Assembly: GCA_963770525.1 (NCBI GenBank)
Contig: CAVYPY010000003.1
Location: 445,129-509,128, forward strand
DNA: 64,000 bases
From: an uncultured Acidobacteriaceae bacterium
Lineage (GTDB): Bacteria > Acidobacteriota > Terriglobia > Terriglobales > Acidobacteriaceae
Direction of reading: 5' to 3'
Each line of letters starts with the position of its first letter. Positions within the stretch are counted from its first letter, which is position 1. A program made the translations under genes and the position numbers. Of the stretch, positions 3,317-45,302 are shown piece after piece. Under the pieces are notes generated by a model. It saw nothing but the letters and a program-made list of their open reading frames with translations, ran no database searches and was not told the origin of the DNA.

Positions 3317-3781
3317 ATGAGCAAAGATTCGACACGCAGCATCATGAAAGGCGCGCTCGCCGGATTAATCGGCGGCCTGGCCGGAGCCGCGGCGAAAATG
3401 ATCGCCGAGCAGCTCTTCCCGCCGCGCGTACAGGGACAGACGCCGCCTCCGGTGGTTCTCGCCGAACAGGTCGCCCGGCGTCCCCTCACCGAGAGCGATC
3501 GCCAAATGGCCATGCAGGGCATTCACTGGATTTTCGGCGCCCTGGCCGGAGCCGTCTACGGCGTCATGGTGGAGTACGAGCCTTCACTGGGCGCCTGGCG
3601 CGGGGCAGCGTTCGGCATTACGCTCAACCGGATCACGCATGAATCCCTGCTGCCGAAGCTGGGTCTGTCGGCTCCTCCCGGGCAACAGCCCACCCAGGAG
3701 CGCATCAGCGAGTGGGCGACGCACGCAGCCTACGGCGTAGCGACGGATGCTGTCCGGCGCGCCGTTCGACGCGCTCTCTGA
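3317..3781 (+). CDS. Small membrane protein (DUF1440-like)
   Basis: ORF 3203..3781. The internal ATG at 3317 (MSKDSTRSIMKGALAGLIGGLAGAAAKMIAEQ) is the likely start. Glycine-rich hydrophobic segments. No catalytic motif recognised. Confidence 0.45.
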   Translation: MSKDSTRSIMKGALAGLIGGLAGAAAKMIAEQLFPPRVQGQTPPPVVLAEQVARRPLTESDRQMAMQGIHWIFGALAGAVYGVMVEYEPSLGAWRGAAFGITLNRITHESLLPKLGLSAPPGQQPTQERISEWATHAAYGVATDAVRRAVRRAL

Positions 3782-3799: not shown

Positions 3800-4870
3800 T
3801 CAGGCTTCCTGGGTCGTCGCAGAAGAATGGCTCACGTCCTCCCCGGCGTGCCCGCTCTCGCGCGTCACGTTCTTCAGGGAGATGTGGTCGAAGCGCGCCC
3901 AGATCAGCCCAACCGGCACGATGCCCAGGAAGGTGACCAGCAGCAGCGTCGCGGCGCATCCGGTCGCCGGCTCCGGCGCCACTCCAAAGAATCCCGACAT
4001 GGCTGCGGCGACCAGGCCGATCTGCGTAAACCAGCCGAGAATGGGCAGCTGAAATCCGCTGGCCACCATGCTCGAAGCCATCAGCAGCATGCACTGAGCA
4101 ACGGTCATATGCCCCAGTTGTGGACTGGCCACAAAAGCTCGGGTCGTCTCCAGATAGGAGAGCGCAATCAGGACCCACATGGCCAGGGAAACTCCCAGCA
4201 TCGCGCCGAAGTCGGAGAAAGAGCGGAGAGTATCGAGTCCGGTGTGGAAGGTTCGAATCTTGTCTCCCACCGCTTGTCCGAGCTTGTGGGACGCCATTCC
4301 GAAGGCCTTCTCGGAAAAGGACGCCACCGCGTTGCCGGAGAGGCGCACAGCCAACAGGAAGAGACCGCCGGCGATCGTCGTCGCCAGGGCTGTGTAGCTC
4401 GCTTTCCGGATGATCTCCGGGTGCGGCAGCGATCCTGAGGGAGCCAGCAGGATCACGGAGCAGAAGATAAGCGCCATCGATCCCGCGTCAAACAGCCGTT
4501 CAACGATGTACACGGCAAGCTGCGAACTCAGCGGCAGCCCGGTCTTCTTCGCGACCAGATAGGGCCGCACCGGATCGGCCACGCGACCGATCAGAGCCAC
4601 CGCTGTGAATCCAATCACCTGCGTGCCCAGCAGCGACAGTAGAGGCACTTTCTTGTTCTGCCGGATCAAGAGCGCCCAGCGAACGGAGCGCAGGACATAG
4701 CCCAGATAAATGCATCCCAGCGCGACGAGAATCCTGCCCCACTCCGCCTGGCGCAGCTGCGCAACAAAGACGTGCCAGTCAAAGTGAATCCGATGACGGC
4801 CGTACCCGATGAGCACGGCAACCGCCGCCAGGATAATGGCCAGTACGATCCAGTTTCTCCTGGATTTCAA
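3800..4870 (-). CDS. Flippase-like / lysylphosphatidylglycerol-synthase transmembrane-domain protein (UPF0104 family)
   Basis: Multi-pass membrane ORF. The stretch RSVRWALLIRQNKKVPLLSLLGTQVIGFTAVALIGRVADPVRPYL is typical of the family. The track start (5056) overlaps the upstream gene. A TTG at 4870 preceded by GGAG (4881-4878) is a more likely start. Confidence 0.7.
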   Translation of the reverse strand: MKSRRNWIVLAIILAAVAVLIGYGRHRIHFDWHVFVAQLRQAEWGRILVALGCIYLGYVLRSVRWALLIRQNKKVPLLSLLGTQVIGFTAVALIGRVADPVRPYLVAKKTGLPLSSQLAVYIVERLFDAGSMALIFCSVILLAPSGSLPHPEIIRKASYTALATTIAGGLFLLAVRLSGNAVASFSEKAFGMASHKLGQAVGDKIRTFHTGLDTLRSFSDFGAMLGVSLAMWVLIALSYLETTRAFVASPQLGHMTVAQCMLLMASSMVASGFQLPILGWFTQIGLVAAAMSGFFGVAPEPATGCAATLLLVTFLGIVPVGLIWARFDHISLKNVTRESGHAGEDVSHSSATTQEA

Positions 4871-4904: not shown

Positions 4905-5666
4905 TCACTGCGCCTGCTGGGGCAGTGGAGCCGGCTGGCCGGCCGCCAATTGCTGCGCGCGCTGGCGAAGCCTGTACCGCCGGTTGTACTCGTGAATGAC
5001 CCGGGCCACATAGAGCTGCGTCTCGCGATAGGGTGGAATCCCGTGCCAACGGTCAACCGCTGCCGGACCGGCGTTGTACGCGGCCAAAGCCAGCGCCAGA
5101 TCGTTGTGGTACCGGGTCAGCAGCGCGTCAAGATAAGCCGTGCCGCCGTCAATATTCTGGCGCGGCGCAAAGCTGTTGCTCACGCCCAGCTGAGCGGCCG
5201 TTCCCGGCATCAGCTGCATCAGCCCCTGCGCACCCGCGCGGCTGACCGCTCGCGAATGCCCGCCGCTCTCCTGCCGGATGACGCTCGCCAGCAGATCGGT
5301 ATCGATATCAAACACCGCTCCGGCTTTCGCGAGCATCGGATGCAGGTCTGAATCGGAAAGCTTCTCCGGTGCGGGAGCCGGCGCAGAGGTGGCCGCAGCG
5401 GTCTTTGCTGCCGGCTTCGGCAGGTTCACGGTCTCGGCAGAGACGATGTCCGAGGCCTTCACTTCCAGATAGCTGCCGGTCGAGTCGTCGAAATAGAGCC
5501 GTACCTTGTCGCCATCCAGCACCCGGTGGTCGCAGATGAGGTTCTGGCCGTTCTTCAGGGTGACATACTCGGCTGCATGGGCCACCGTGCCGCCCAGGCA
5601 GACGACAGCCAGGACCATGAGGCCCGTTTTGGCGCACGATCGGTGCATTGCCTCCAACTCTACCAT
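4905..5666 (-). CDS. Lytic transglycosylase (SLT domain) with signal peptide
   Basis: Motifs: VIRQESGGHSRAVSRAGAQGLMQLMPGTA ... AYNAGPAAV. Confidence 0.85.
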   Translation of the reverse strand: MVELEAMHRSCAKTGLMVLAVVCLGGTVAHAAEYVTLKNGQNLICDHRVLDGDKVRLYFDDSTGSYLEVKASDIVSAETVNLPKPAAKTAAATSAPAPAPEKLSDSDLHPMLAKAGAVFDIDTDLLASVIRQESGGHSRAVSRAGAQGLMQLMPGTAAQLGVSNSFAPRQNIDGGTAYLDALLTRYHNDLALALAAYNAGPAAVDRWHGIPPYRETQLYVARVIHEYNRRYRLRQRAQQLAAGQPAPLPQQAQ

Positions 5667-5668
5667 TC

Positions 5669-6541
5669 TCAGACGCGACTTTCGGCTAAAACGCTCTCCA
5701 CGATCCGGGCAACGCCATCGTCGTCATTGGCGGGGGCAATTTCCCATCCGCGCTGGCGCGCCAGGTCCACCAGGTCCGGAGCGCCATTCCTCATGACGAC
5801 CGGCCGCCCGGCGAACTCCAGCATTTCCAGATCGTTCCAGTTATCGCCTATCGCCAGAATCGCCTCGCGTGCAATGCCCCGTTTTTCAGCGAGTTGGCGC
5901 AGCGCTGCCCCTTTGGAACACCCCGCCGGCAGGATGTCGACAATCGTCAGGTTCCGTGACGGATACTCCGTCCGGTGCACTTCAATCTGCGGGGCAAGGG
6001 GGCTCTCCATTAGCCATTCCTCTGCGCGCCTCATTTCCGCTACGCCACCGCAGACCATGCCCTGGACCGGCGCCTCTCCATTATCGAATGCCCGTTCCAG
6101 CGGCCTGACTTCGCGAATCCACGGCCGGTTCGCCTCCACCCAGAGAGAGATGCGGTCATGAAGTGACTGCAGCGACTCGAGAACCAGCTCGCCGGCCCCT
6201 TCCCGGTCGAACGTGAAGACCGTCGTCCCGAAAGGACGGAGCGCGGGACACAAGGCGCGTGCGGTTTCCACCGGCAGGAAAAAGCGATCGATGGGATCGC
6301 CCGCCATCGTGCGCGTAACCGTGCCATTGGAGGTGATCAGCACCGTCTCCGGCCTGAGGCCCAGGGGGCTGAGCAGCGGCATCGCATACGCCTGCCGCCG
6401 CCCGGTCGCAATCACGACATCCAGCCCCGCCGCCTCGGCCTCGCGCAGGATGCGACAGGTGCGCTCGCTCACGCCTGCTCCCACTGACGGCAACAGCGTG
6501 CCATCGATATCGATCACCAGCATGCGAATGGGAGCTGTCAT
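5669..6541 (-). CDS. HAD-IIB (Cof-type) phosphatase
   Basis: Motifs: MLVIDIDGTLL, ATGRR, GDNWNDLEML. There is a 4-nt overlap with tadA. Confidence 0.8.
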   Translation of the reverse strand: MTAPIRMLVIDIDGTLLPSVGAGVSERTCRILREAEAAGLDVVIATGRRQAYAMPLLSPLGLRPETVLITSNGTVTRTMAGDPIDRFFLPVETARALCPALRPFGTTVFTFDREGAGELVLESLQSLHDRISLWVEANRPWIREVRPLERAFDNGEAPVQGMVCGGVAEMRRAEEWLMESPLAPQIEVHRTEYPSRNLTIVDILPAGCSKGAALRQLAEKRGIAREAILAIGDNWNDLEMLEFAGRPVVMRNGAPDLVDLARQRGWEIAPANDDDGVARIVESVLAESRV

Positions 6542-40070: not shown

Positions 40071-40370
40071 TGTATCAGGGCATGGGTCTTGTATCAGGTC
40101 ATGGGTCTTGTATCAGGGCATGGGACTTGTATCAGGTCATGGGTCCTGTATCAGGGCATGGGTCTTGTATCAGGCATGGGTCCTGTATCAGGGCATGGGA
40201 CTTGTATCAGGTCATGGGTCCTGTATCAGGTCATGGGTCTTGTATCAGGCATGGGTCCTGTATCAGGGCATGGGTCCTGTATCAGGGCATGGGACTTGTA
40301 TCAGGGCATGGGACTTGTATCAGGTCATGGGTCTTGTATCAGGCATGGGTCTTGTATCAGGCATGGCTCT
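40071..40370. repeat. Tandem array of 16 units of 18-19 bp, TGTATCAGG(G/T/-)CATGG(G/C)(T/A)C(T/C)
   Basis: Units counted by hand start at 40071, 40090, 40109, 40128, 40147, 40166, 40184, 40203, 40222, 40241, 40259, 40278, 40297, 40316, 40335 and 40353. Twelve are 19 bp and four are 18 bp. Confidence 0.95.
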
Positions 40371-40439
40371 TGTATCAGGGCACGACTTCAGTCGTGCCGA
40401 ATAAGTGCGCCGACAGGTACCTTCCTTGCTGCCGCAGGC
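40370..40439. repeat. Right arm of the inverted repeat (REP-like hairpin GGCACGAC-TTCA-GTCGTGCC plus the outer 19-mer)
   Basis: See the left arm. The spacer segments between the inner and outer blocks (18 and 19 nt) are unrelated. Confidence 0.85.
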
Positions 40440-40517
40440 TCTCGGCGCAGGTGCGCAGCACCGCAGCCGAGTCGTTGAATCGGCCGATTGCCTCAAAGCA
40501 GGCCTGATCCGCTGTCG

Positions 40518-41060
40518 CTAGCGGCTGTTTTCCCCGTGCCAGTCGATGTGGACGCCGCGGGCGGAGATGGTGATGGAGGGCGGGCGCTGGCGGGTGAGGA
40601 GATGGATGGTCTGGAATCCGCCGGTGAGGGCGAGGAGGGCTCCGCTGCCGACGAGGAGGCCGAGTTTGGAGGTGGGGTCGGGGTCGAGGACGGCGGCGAT
40701 GATGAGGCCGGCGCCGAAAACCGTCATCCCCGCCGAAACGGAGACGGCGGTCCACTCGCGGCGGGAGAGGCGGCCGGAGAGGCCCATCTGCAGGAGCGAG
40801 TGGCGGGCGGGGTCGATGCCAGCGCCAGCGTCGTCGATGAGGTCGACCTGGGCGTGGTGGCGGTAGGCCTCGGTGAGGCGGGCGAGCCAGTCTTTTTCGG
40901 AGGTTCGGATGGTTAGGGGCGGGGCCGGGCTGGATTGCAAGTCGGGCTTCGACTCGTGGCGGGGGGGCAGGACGATCTCGGTTGGCCCGGTGGAGCGATA
41001 GGCCTTCATCGCATTCAGGCCGGCCTGAAAGGCCTGGCGGATCCTAGCCATGTGAAACAC
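40518..41060 (-). CDS. Hypothetical membrane protein (soluble N-terminal half, two C-terminal TM helices)
   Basis: 180-aa ORF. Either the GTG at 41060 or the ATG at 41051 could be the start. It overlaps the XRE gene's stop by 17 or 8 nt. TM segments: VSAGMTVFGAGLIIAAVL and LGLLVGSGALLALTGGF. Confidence 0.55.
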   Translation of the reverse strand: MFHMARIRQAFQAGLNAMKAYRSTGPTEIVLPPRHESKPDLQSSPAPPLTIRTSEKDWLARLTEAYRHHAQVDLIDDAGAGIDPARHSLLQMGLSGRLSRREWTAVSVSAGMTVFGAGLIIAAVLDPDPTSKLGLLVGSGALLALTGGFQTIHLLTRQRPPSITISARGVHIDWHGENSR

Positions 41061-41367
41061 GCTCCAGCCGCTGCAGGGTATCAGGGTAATGACGCACCAG
41101 CAGGATCAGCGCTGCGGCCTGGGGATTGGGTTTGGAACGGCCCTGTTCCCATTTTTCGAGTGTGCGCTCGTTAATGCGCAGGCGGCGAGCAAAGACGGCA
41201 CGGGAGCAGCGCAGCCTGGCACGCGTGTCGCGAATGAAGGCCGAATCCAGTTCGGGGAGCGGCGCGGGATCGAAGCGATACGAGCGCAGCGTGATTTTCC
41301 CCTCGCGATGTGCCTTCATCGCCTCGACGCCTTCCATGAGTTCGTTGAAGAGACTGCGCTTCGCCAT
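41044..41367 (-). CDS. XRE-family HTH protein, antitoxin-like (COG2944/HigA2-like architecture)
   Basis: 107 aa. C-terminal HTH reads SRAVFARRLRINERTLEKWEQGRSKPNPQAAALI. GGAGG lies upstream of the ATG. Confidence 0.75.
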   Translation of the reverse strand: MAKRSLFNELMEGVEAMKAHREGKITLRSYRFDPAPLPELDSAFIRDTRARLRCSRAVFARRLRINERTLEKWEQGRSKPNPQAAALILLVRHYPDTLQRLERVSHG

Positions 41368-41520
41368 AACTACCTCCTCGGCGGACGTCGTGCGACCCGC
41401 ATTGCTGTCTCCATGTCGACCGCTGCTTTCAGTGCGCTTTTTTGTGCAGGGCTCAGATCGTCCATTTCGCTCTTCCCTTACAGCGTCATCAGCCAGATTT
41501 GCCGATTCAGGAGGATTGCT

Positions 41521-42300
41521 TCATTCGCTGCTTATCACAACACGTTCCTTCCGCGACCATTCCTTATAGGTGCTATTGCAGTAAGGATGAGTAAGCACCG
41601 CGTTGTCCTCCGAGCCAAGGCCTCCATGCCTTTTGTCAACGACATGGTCCAGGTTCATGGAATTCTTGTGTAGGCGTGCTCTACATATTCCGCACCGCAT
41701 CGCCGTCTTTAGAGCTTGAGTCAAAAACACTGCCGACTTTCTCTCGGTAGTAAAGTCCGGATTCGTCCCCTTGTCGAAGTCGATGATCGGCTTTAGAAAT
41801 CCCATTGTCTCTTCTTCGACCAGTTTCGGGATGATTTCTTCCTCGTTCTTGCCTTGCCGGATTCCATCAAAAACGTGCCTGAAGAGACGGGAGACGCCAG
41901 TCAGGCTCCTTTGCCCCGCACCGAGTTTCCTGACAATTTGATTGATGAGGTACTTATGCCTGACAAGCAGTTCCTCAAAATCGTGCCGAAACTGCGTAAA
42001 AACGTTTAGTTCGTCAGACCTCTCAAGGTCCAAGGCGAGGCGAACGGCAGCTAGAAATGCGGTTGGTTGATAGTTACCTGTTGCGCTGTAGAAGTAGACC
42101 GCAGGATGCAGCCCCAGAGACTGCGGCTTTATTCCCGCGATTCTGGAGGACGCGTTGCGGACGTTTTCGAGAAACTGAATTGTCTTTGACCCATCGGTGT
42201 CCTCTTGCATTGTGGGCGCAAGAATGTCAGTCTTTCCCCTGCGCCTTTTCACAGCTGGGCCTGCCGTGGGAATGGGATTCACAAATTCGACAAAATCTAG
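41521..42300 (-). pseudogene. C-terminal fragment (HNH nuclease part) of an IS-disrupted ParB/DGQHR-fold + HNH gene
   Basis: HNH motif CGICRARLHKNSMNLDHVVDKRHGGLGSEDNAVLTHPYCN. Its frame continues in phase with the N-terminal fragment once the IS and one CTAG copy are removed. Confidence 0.8.
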
Positions 42301-43200
42301 AGGCTGTTATTAAGTTTGAGTAAGCATTTTGAAGAGGGTGGCGAGCATGAGGCAGGCGCAGGCGAGAAAGTGGAAGGCACCGAGAGTGGTAGCCAGGCGT
42401 TCGTAATCGCGGGCCAGGCGGCGGAAGCGGGCAGCCCAGGCAAAGCTTCTCTCCACCACCCAGCGGCGCGGCAGCAGAACAAAGCCTCGTTTGGCCTGAG
42501 TATGTTTCACCACTTCCAGGGCGATTCCGTGCTGTTCGGCGGCCTCGGCCGCAGCTTCGCCGGTATAGCCCTGATCCACGTAGGCGAGTTCGACGTGCTC
42601 ACCGGTGATCTGCTGCACCTGCCGGGACAGCTCGCCGACCTGGGCGCGATCCTGTTCGTTGGCCGGAGTCACATGCAGGGCCAGCAGATGCCCCAGCGTA
42701 TCCACAGCGGCGTGTACTTTGGAGCCTTTGCGCCGTTTGGCTCCGTCATAGCCGGCTCGCGCACCCGATTCCGGTGTCGACTGCAGCGTGCGGCTGTCGA
42801 GAATCATCGCTGTGGGCTGCGCTTTGCGCCCGGCAAACTCGCGCAGCAGCATGCGCAGGTCTTCCACCATCGTCTCGAAGCAACGGGCGCGGATCCAGCG
42901 CTGCACCTGCTGATACACGACCTCCCACGGCGGCAGATCGTTGGGCAGATAACGCCACTGGCAGCCGGTCCGCACCACATAGCGCAATCCGTTGAAGACG
43001 TCGCGGAGCGGGTACTCGCGCTGCTCGGCGTCCTCCCGGCAGAGGGCCAGGTAGGGCGCCACCATCGCCCACTCCTCATCCGTCACATCGCTCGGATACC
43101 CCTGTCGCTCACGCCGTCCCACAACCCCAGGATGCACGACAGAAAGCCAAATCGCTCATCTGTTTCAAAACACAGGAACAAACTTAATAACAGCCTCTAG
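42297..43200 (-). mobile_element. IS5-family insertion sequence (904 bp including both CTAG ends)
   Basis: Perfect 22-bp terminal inverted repeats: CTAGAGGCTGTTATTAAGTTTG (42297-42318) and CAAACTTAATAACAGCCTCTAG (43179-43200). CTAG at both ends can be read as a 4-bp target duplication. There is a single transposase ORF inside. Confidence 0.9.
42310..43137 (-). CDS. IS5-family DDE transposase
   Basis: 275 aa. The stretch [16 protein letters not shown]...[31 protein letters not shown] (DUF4096-type N-terminus) is followed by a DDE_Tnp_1-like region ([10 protein letters not shown]...YVDQGYTG...[10 protein letters not shown]). Confidence 0.9.
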
Positions 43201-44049
43201 AATGAGTTTCATCGTCTCTGCCGAATAGCCGCGGCCAGCTACGGGCAAATCGAGCGTCTTTATCGGGGTTTCTAACGGAGGCACAAAGAGGTCTGCGTAG
43301 ACATCCTTCGCCAACAACTTGATTTGACCGTTCGTTAGATCGGAGAAAGATGGCGGGGAGTATCGTCCGGTTCCAGCCCCAACGAGTGCGCGTGTCGCTA
43401 TTGCATTGGCACTCTTCCGGTCTCTAATTAAGCGCACTTCCAAGTCGCCAATCGGGGTTTGCTCAGTATTGATCGTGTGGAATGATCTCTCCGCGCGTGA
43501 CGCATCGCCGCGAACCCACTGCAACGTGATTCCGCCAGCCGCCAGATTGCTCGCGAATCGAGCACGTTCCGGGGTCAAATTGGCACCATGCTTGATGTCG
43601 TTATATGACCCGATTTTCGTTGCGACTAGCTTTCGCGCCTCAAGCGCGGCGGCTTTCTGTTCCGGGGGTATCGAACCTTCAAAAAATCCCAGCGAAATTC
43701 CGCCGTCTCCATAGTCATCGTGCACCCACGCAACCAGCGCACTGAGGCGATGTGCTCCATCAATTACGAATATTCCGCTTGCATCGGATTGCCAAAGAAT
43801 CAGGGCGGGGATGAGGTCGCCAGATACGAAACTCTCGATGAAGCCTGCTACCTTCGTCGGGGACCAATGCGCCGTCGTCCTCTGAAAATCAGGCTTTCTG
43901 AGCCACCTGAACATGAGACTCGTAGGCTCAATCTCTATGATTTTCATTCGATCCGCTTCATCCAGTGGATGTGACTTCTGCGGGTCAATGTTTACGGTGA
44001 AATCCTCTCTGCGGATCAGCGCGTCGAGGTTGACCATGTGCGTGGGCAC
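43197..44049 (-). pseudogene. N-terminal fragment (ParB/sulfiredoxin-fold, DGQHR-type domain) of the IS-disrupted nuclease gene
   Basis: Sequence: LRKPDFQRTTAHWSPTKVAGFIESFVSGDLIPALILWQSDASGIFVIDGAHRLSAL. The track ORF extends to 43165, but its last 10 residues (EAVIKFVPVF) are encoded by the IS end. Confidence 0.8.

Positions 44050-44143: not shown

Positions 44144-45302
<1,159 letters not shown>

Follow-up and report, generated by a model that had tools for sequence, protein, structure and literature searches.

The antitoxin HigA2 of Vibrio cholerae carries a disordered toxin-neutralising segment ahead of a helix-turn-helix (HTH) domain, and its residues 3-22 form the minimal peptide that folds into a helix on the toxin HigB2 and neutralises it (Hadzi et al., PMC5416850); these N-terminal helices bind the RelE-fold toxin and not one another. 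The V. cholerae HigB2/HigA2 system (PDB 5JAA, 5J9I and 5JA8) is the closest described counterpart of a locus in a 64,000-nucleotide stretch of DNA (the window; contig CAVYPY010000003.1, positions 445,129 to 509,128) from an uncultured Acidobacteriaceae bacterium. In this locus a gene for an XRE-family protein overlaps a gene for a protein with two transmembrane (TM) helices, and the two proteins begin with the same motif. The first-pass annotation had proposed that the pair is a candidate toxin-antitoxin (TA) or abortive-infection (Abi) module. We consider it probable instead that the XRE protein is the orphan HigA2 of a broken HigB2/HigA2 pair, and that the membrane gene is an independent gene that borrowed and kept the neutralising helix, the two together not being a new two-gene toxin or suicide module.

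The XRE protein is a full-length counterpart of V. cholerae HigA2, with both the disordered neutralising segment and the HTH aligned, and relatives of the present locus share the inverted, toxin-first gene order with HigB2 directly upstream. Unlike the V. cholerae system, the window retains the toxin gene as a pseudogene remnant of about 44 codons with its promoter region replaced, leaving the antitoxin an orphan. In tripartite toxin-antitoxin-chaperone (TAC) systems, such as the HigB1-HigA1-SecB-like chaperone of Mycobacterium tuberculosis, a dedicated chaperone recognises an extra segment on the antitoxin, and all three genes are found together. The locus is like these systems in having a third gene linked to a HigBA-type pair and a short peptide segment as the contact point; here, however, it is the third gene that bears the antitoxin-like segment, and this gene encodes a membrane protein and mostly occurs without a TA pair. 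Orphan antitoxins and anti-addiction modules are chromosomal antitoxins that neutralise the toxins of incoming mobile elements (reviewed in PMC7354431). As in such systems, the antitoxin gene has been kept after loss of the toxin, in three lineages here, and a stand-alone copy of the neutralising determinant occurs in genomes without a cognate toxin. In contrast to these, a second copy of the helix alone has been grafted onto an unrelated two-TM protein, for which neutralisation is putative. The core of this protein is shared with an unnamed two-TM family of about 130 amino acids (aa), to which the helix and a linker are additions, and no description of a membrane-anchored antitoxin was found in the collection of papers searched.

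The XRE gene (41367..41044, minus strand; 107 aa; stop TAG at 41046..41044) has more than 3000 homologues. The HigA2/COG2944-type architecture originally assigned to its product was borne out by a phmmer search against PDB, in which residues 1-101 aligned with residues 1-101 of V. cholerae HigA2 (5j9i_A; 5j9i/5jaa) at E 2.1e-19, the alignment taking in both the N-terminal segment and the C-terminal HTH. Pfam HTH_31/HTH_3 matched residues 43-88 within an HTH region of about residues 43-100, and the N terminus aligned without gaps with the neutralising segment of V. cholerae HigA2 (KRSLFNELMEGVEAMKAHRE versus NRDLFAELSSALVEAKQHSE), residues 3-22 forming the match to the neutralising helix. In the relatives L001 and L003 (metagenome-assembled genomes), the XRE homologue is preceded, at a distance of 2 nt, by a gene encoding 117 aa, which spans 2286-2639 in L001; its product scores 24-25 bits against Pfam RelE PF06296, just under the curated cut-off of 27, and the L001 protein matches V. 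cholerae HigB2 at E 2.4e-27. An intact upstream HigB2 gene is thus present in these two relatives, and also in L045.

Directly upstream of the XRE gene in the window there is no intact HigB2 or RelE-fold toxin gene, as only approximately codons 74-117 are left, in a 3' remnant of the HigB2-type (PF06296 RelE-like) toxin gene at 41370..41506 on the minus strand. In a blastn comparison, DNA likeness to the L001 toxin gene starts at 41506, just past the HNH stop of a GmrSD-like gene. The remnant translates as QIWLMTL*GKSEMDDLSPAQKSALKAAV...RRPPRR, the L001 counterpart being QIWLMTLYGKDEMGDLSPAEKKALKAAV...RRPPRR; over these approximately 44 codons the reading is QIWLMTL*GKSEMDDLSPAQK...RRPPRR, and the in-frame TAA (41480..41478) stands where the relatives have Tyr. 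The 31-codon open reading frame (ORF) at 41465..41370 (minus strand), previously suspected to be a remnant, is the tail of this toxin remnant according to the match to the intact L001 gene. An apparent tblastn extension of the toxin match to residues 51-73 was rejected as spurious, since it runs through stop codons and falls within the end of the neighbouring gene that encodes the HNH motif. No second HigA2 or HigB2 homologue was found elsewhere in the 5.2-Mb genome.

Because only about 44 C-terminal toxin codons with an in-frame TAA remain, the XRE protein is, on sequence grounds, a HigA2-type antitoxin/repressor that is now orphaned by the destruction of its HigB2 gene. The GmrSD-like gene has replaced the 5' part and the promoter region of the toxin gene, and its arrival probably truncated higB2, as its 3' end abuts the toxin remnant. 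Two further lineages with an XRE gene beside a long-form membrane gene (one encoding the additional helix and linker) have also lost the toxin, by other routes. In G432 an internal deletion leaves the MELFE of the toxin fused to the XRE start, and in L044, where the XRE protein is 100% identical to that of the window, the toxin is 5'-truncated at approximately codon 79-81. Decayed copies of higA2, reduced to their N-terminal 26-34 codons, were also observed directly downstream of the membrane gene in L020 (G421; 1373-1474) and L030 (G440; 2115-2300), and upstream of it, out of frame, in L022 (G424; 235-312). At this locus, decay thus seems to spare the 5' end of higA2 preferentially.

The membrane-protein ORF is of the long form (41051..40518, minus strand) and encodes an inner-membrane protein of 177 aa from ATG 41051 or 180 aa from GTG 41060, overlapping the XRE stop by 8 or 17 nt, respectively. 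The ATG is likelier to be the start, since GGAG lies 10 nt upstream of it and every long-form homologue begins with MA(T/R/N). The coordinates and overlaps reported in the first-pass annotation were all reproduced, as were the two TM helices, for which the sequence predictions (W100-L122, 40686..40754; L130-L152, 40596..40664; both minus strand) agree with helices 97-122 and 129-153 of an AlphaFold2 (AF2) model of moderate quality (mean predicted local distance difference test score, pLDDT, 65). The second TM helix, which is also marked by invariant alignment columns, comes after an invariant DPDPTSK turn. As positive residues flank both helices (R94, R97 and R98 before the first, R154 and R156 after the second) and the acidic turn lies between them, the protein would form an N-in/C-in hairpin, and its N-terminal part is predicted to be cytoplasmic. 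When the model was compared with PDB folds, nothing was found at E <= 0.001; the best match, SepF at E 0.5, is not meaningful. The protein likewise has no Pfam, NCBIfam or PADLOC-DB 2.0 family (for PADLOC, which models anti-phage defence proteins, none at E <= 0.01).

That the membrane ORF is a coding gene, a point on which the original proposal depended, is supported by its 250 homologues, which come from Acidobacteriaceae wherever a source is named, and by pairwise ratios of nonsynonymous to synonymous substitution rates (dN/dS) of 0.12-0.24 in the core. Of the 58 genomes of the window's genus, 27 had the gene, as did two of approximately 395 searched genomes from other genera of the same family. 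The core, extending from IRTSEKDW to HIDW, is 61-92% identical among homologues and contains 34 invariant columns in 79 sequences; GC content at third codon positions (GC3) of the gene is 0.90, and a core profile matched 163 cluster representatives among 1.84 billion. The family is characterised by the IRTSE..W and DDAxxGIDP motifs, a DPxPTSK periplasmic turn, GGF in the second TM helix and a C-terminal hairpin, and the window protein has the conserved core. As a separate observation, a giant protein of 3580 aa (P0272) matches core profile positions 25-57, the DDAxxGIDP region, in 27 separate stretches, and this short motif may occur elsewhere as a repeat unit. In L046 (G432:C154), the long-form gene also has an inverted partial duplicate (N terminus and core residues 1-73) about 1.3 kb from the full copy, the coordinates being 3913-4272 on the plus strand and 5612-6130 on the minus strand.

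Of 120 protein clusters, about 90 are short forms that lack the shared motif and about 26 are long forms. Remote homologues are approximately 130 aa long and start right at the IRTSE motif, without the shared motif or any similar extension; the short form of about 130 aa is therefore ancestral and the helix a derived addition. The two-TM family carries the HigA2-like helix and linker only in members from this acidobacterial genus. Taken together, the membrane ORF is a real, independent and conserved gene that usually occurs without an XRE gene.

The shared motif was confirmed at both levels at which it had been described, with 16 of 18 nucleotides identical between GCGATGAAGGCACATCGC (41322..41305) and GCGATGAAGGCCTATCGC (41012..40995), which encode GVEAMKAHR in the XRE protein and GLNAMKAYR in the membrane protein. 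The N termini of long forms are of the type M-x-x-x-K-(I/L)-x-x-x-(F/I)-Q-x-G-(L/V)-x-A-M-K-A-(Y/H)-R, followed by a Pro/Ala-rich linker of 27-54 aa, and most long forms have the motif at the same distance from Met1 (G13..R21) as the XRE protein does. A motif hidden Markov model (HMM) of 26 positions was built from 24 long-form N termini, with neither the window's protein nor the XRE-type fusion among them, and all 70,961 six-frame ORFs of at least 40 aa in the genome were searched with it. The model matched the membrane ORF at E 1.8e-8 and the XRE ORF at E 7.2e-4, the next match standing at E 0.81, so that in a profile comparison the likeness moderately exceeds what would be expected by chance. 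The motif aligns with V. cholerae HigA2 residues 3-22 (PMC5416850), as had been supposed when the shared segment was taken for the neutralising part of HigA2, and hydrophobic positions 6, 10, 14 and 17 are kept. The AF2 model has a helix at residues 2-18 (pLDDT about 85-72), and pLDDT falls below 50 for linker residues 33-41. The first 20 or so residues of the membrane protein thus appear to be a diverged copy of the HigA2 neutralising helix on a flexible Pro/Ala-rich tether, predicted to be cytoplasmic. In the window, the N-terminal amphipathic helix (codons 2-19; 40995..41048, minus strand) is homologous to HigA2 residues ~4-21, and the Pro/Ala/Ser-rich linker, delimited by alignment and by AF2, takes up codons 20-47 (40911..40994, minus strand).

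Since remote family members lack the helix, we infer that it was gained by in-frame fusion of the 5' end of a resident higA2 onto the membrane gene. An independent and recent event of this kind is directly visible in another species of the genus, where L006-L008 and L013 (one species; protein P0038) have XRE codons 1-43 fused to a short-form core right after prfB. This fusion carries 13 nt of XRE upstream sequence including the ribosome-binding site, and neither an HTH nor a toxin is left. Long forms occur in at least three clades of the core tree, and the two main long-form types are closer to each other than either is to the XRE protein. One old gain of the helix with later losses is plausible, since insertion at the 5' end would cost the gene its helix.

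The helix appears to be maintained by purifying selection at the protein level. Its codons have dN/dS of 0.08-0.26, as compared with 0.12-0.24 in the core, and the motif is kept across clades whose cores are 61-66% identical. The linker of 27-54 aa is variable in length and sequence among long forms with the reading frame kept throughout, and GC content of the extension is of the coding type in frame (GC3 of 0.78 above a second-position GC2 of 0.57). In one clade (the window, L005, L020, L021, L041 and L044; a small sample), dS was about 0.72 in helix codons 4-19 as against about 0.18 in the core, approximately a fourfold difference and a hint that recombination has made the 5' end of the gene a mosaic.

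The membrane gene lies near prfB in L001, L005, L006, L041, L042, L046, L047, L050 and L051, and the stretch at its 5' end differs among genomes, with cargo in many of them sitting between prfB and the membrane gene. The genes found upstream of the membrane gene include AIPR and higBA2 (L001), a PARIS-like AAA_15 with DUF4276 (L005), a restriction-modification methylase pair (L041), ParD/Zeta (L009, L043 and L044), a RAYT transposase (L042 and L046) and methyltransferases (L047 and L050), while in L006 there is nothing but a 24-nt gap after prfB. The locus in the window is the decayed end of a higBA2 cassette in this variable TA/defence insertion spot between prfB and the membrane gene. In L044 the XRE gene and the membrane gene are separated by a ParD/Zeta cassette in the opposite orientation. 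The same cassette is flanked by two copies of the first ~20 nt of the membrane gene (2410-2432 and 3501-3527; ATGGCTAGAATCCGCCAGGC and ATGGCCACATCTAAAATCCGCCAGGC), and cassettes may enter at, and regenerate, the 5' end of that gene.

Among the 27 genomes of the genus that have the membrane gene, approximately eight also have XRE sequence, as a gene or a fragment, within about 1.5 kb of it; in L005, L009, L041, L042 and L043 the long form has no XRE gene with it. Direct overlap of the two genes was restricted to the window and G432 among these 27 genomes, and the two genes do not co-occur as a conserved pair. Because most copies lack an XRE neighbour, direct overlap is rare and ParD/Zeta is interposed in L044, the two genes are not an obligate module. 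The overlap in the window is best read as the outcome of deleting the spacer that parts the genes in L001, L003 and L045. The two genes in the window are probably co-transcribed and translationally coupled via the ATGGCTAG overlap, and such coupling would be a by-product of cassette decay with no functional partnership.

The two-gene module as first proposed, in which the XRE protein and a membrane effector would form a TA or Abi pair with the shared peptide mediating their contact, would accommodate several features of the locus. The 8-nt overlap suggests co-translation and is conserved in G432, the locus sits among defence genes, and the neighbourhood of the membrane gene contains XRE genes or fragments in about 8 of 27 genomes, more than an arbitrary gene would be expected to have. 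We nevertheless regard such a module as very improbable: the cognate partner type of the XRE protein is HigB2, which is intact in relatives; most copies of the membrane gene have no nearby XRE gene and most have no motif; the remote homologues stand alone at about 130 aa; a ParD/Zeta cassette parts the genes in L044; the membrane protein has no PADLOC match; and HigA2 N-terminal helices bind the RelE-fold toxin rather than each other (PMC5416850). What stood from the first-pass annotation was the HigA2-type antitoxin, the toxin remnant and the shared neutralising segment, and what did not stand was the new TA or Abi pair. The extension might also be a neutral fusion scar, a functionless higA2 5' end kept only because it supplies a start codon and a ribosome-binding site, as the L006/L013 fusion, which brings both of these from the XRE gene, would illustrate. 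Decayed XRE fragments around the membrane gene in L020, L022 and L030 fit this explanation, and open frames are easily kept in high-GC DNA. It is nonetheless distinctly unlikely, given that helix dN/dS is as low as that of the core while the adjoining linker varies freely, and that the motif persists across clades with such divergent cores.

The borrowed helix could still bind HigB2-type toxins, so that the membrane protein would sequester or neutralise them at the inner membrane as a tethered decoy; this would give immunity (anti-addiction) against higBA2 cassettes that repeatedly land at this spot, and the resident toxin would be free to decay. The helix corresponds to the exact 20-residue peptide that suffices to neutralise V. 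cholerae HigB2 in vitro (PMC5416850), its hydrophobic face (6, 10, 14 and 17) is conserved, the predicted topology places it in the cytoplasm on a flexible tether, it is under apparent purifying selection, and the fusion arose at least twice. The toxin is moreover dead in all three loci that combine an XRE gene with a long form (the window, L044 and G432) and intact in all three with an XRE gene and a short form (L001, L003 and L045), although this three-versus-three pattern is tiny and phylogenetically clustered. Against this role, the acidic face of the helix has been lost, with basic residues in place of the acidic ones and a net charge of +3 to +5 in long forms, 0 in the XRE protein and -2 in V. 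cholerae HigA2, even though the toxin is a basic RNase and the charged face contributes to binding in V. cholerae HigBA2. Intact HigB2 was found in none of the eight long-form genomes searched, the corresponding counts being two of 19 for short forms and about 5-8 of 31 where the membrane gene is absent, numbers too small to interpret. The idea that the long form goes with a resident HigB2 was rejected, as none of those eight long-form genomes has an intact HigB2 gene. We therefore think a decoy role unlikely, and it is likewise unlikely that the two-TM protein, having captured the HigA2 helix at least twice independently, uses it as a membrane-tethered trap for HigB2-type mRNA-cleaving nucleases. 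In our estimate there is not quite an even chance that the helix was exapted, serving now as a basic amphipathic N-terminal helix whose function has nothing to do with a resident toxin.

Several points weigh against the reading of an orphan HigA2 beside a membrane gene that borrowed its helix. The reciprocal HMM, built from 21 closely related XRE N termini, recovered only the XRE protein from the six-frame ORFs of the genome, the membrane ORF being absent at E <= 10; within the family, the same narrow model scored all long forms, mostly weakly, with only one short form not ranked below them. The significance of the motif would accordingly derive from the forward profile and from context, with one E-value of 7.2e-4 for a 20-residue segment. 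The dN/dS estimates come from nine related sequences and 16 helix codons, and the pairs are not independent. Repeated gains of the helix, or recombination at the 5' end, would also account for the distribution of long forms among clades, alongside a single gain with several losses. Finally, no sigma-70-like promoter site was found on the minus strand at 40300-41700.

Along the minus strand, the gene order is lnt, prfB, the GmrSD-like gene with its insertion sequence (IS), the toxin remnant, the XRE gene and the membrane gene. The prfB gene (44144..45139, minus strand; Pfam PCRF and RF-1) is the conserved left anchor of the variable region. The GmrSD-like gene (41521..44049, minus strand) encodes a DUF262 and HNH nuclease and is split by an IS5-family element at 42310..43137, the Pfam matches being GmrSD_N, HNH and, for the element, DDE_Tnp_1. 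Just downstream of the membrane gene lies a hairpin-rich element of about 55 nt (40420..40474, minus strand) that resembles repetitive extragenic palindromic (REP) sequences. This REP-like element flanks higBA2 as direct repeats in L001 (2149-2201 and 2980-3032) and L003 (720-773 and 1641-1699), a striking placement around a TA cassette, and its copy in the window is inverted. The genome has one other full copy (C2) and approximately four partial copies of its core. The possibility that these 55-nt repeats are an attC-like cassette recombination site was rejected on account of the inverse copy downstream of the membrane gene and the partial copies scattered in the genome.

For the antitoxin, the picture is ordinary: a higBA2 cassette has decayed at a site where defence and TA genes insert. 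More unusual is the apparent move of a short, intrinsically disordered neutralising helix to an unrelated membrane protein, where selection appears to have kept it, a second, recent fusion being visible in a sister species. Whether or not the helix still binds HigB2, annotation of the locus as a new XRE/membrane TA or Abi system would be unwarranted. If such binding persists, the membrane protein would be a natural minimal tethered antitoxin and a concrete anti-addiction device, and a trap of this kind would provide a new route to immunity against selfish higBA2 cassettes or phage- or plasmid-borne HigB2 without a DNA-binding antitoxin. If it does not, the locus would offer a clean exaptation of an antitoxin segment, with the debris of TA systems feeding new protein N termini.

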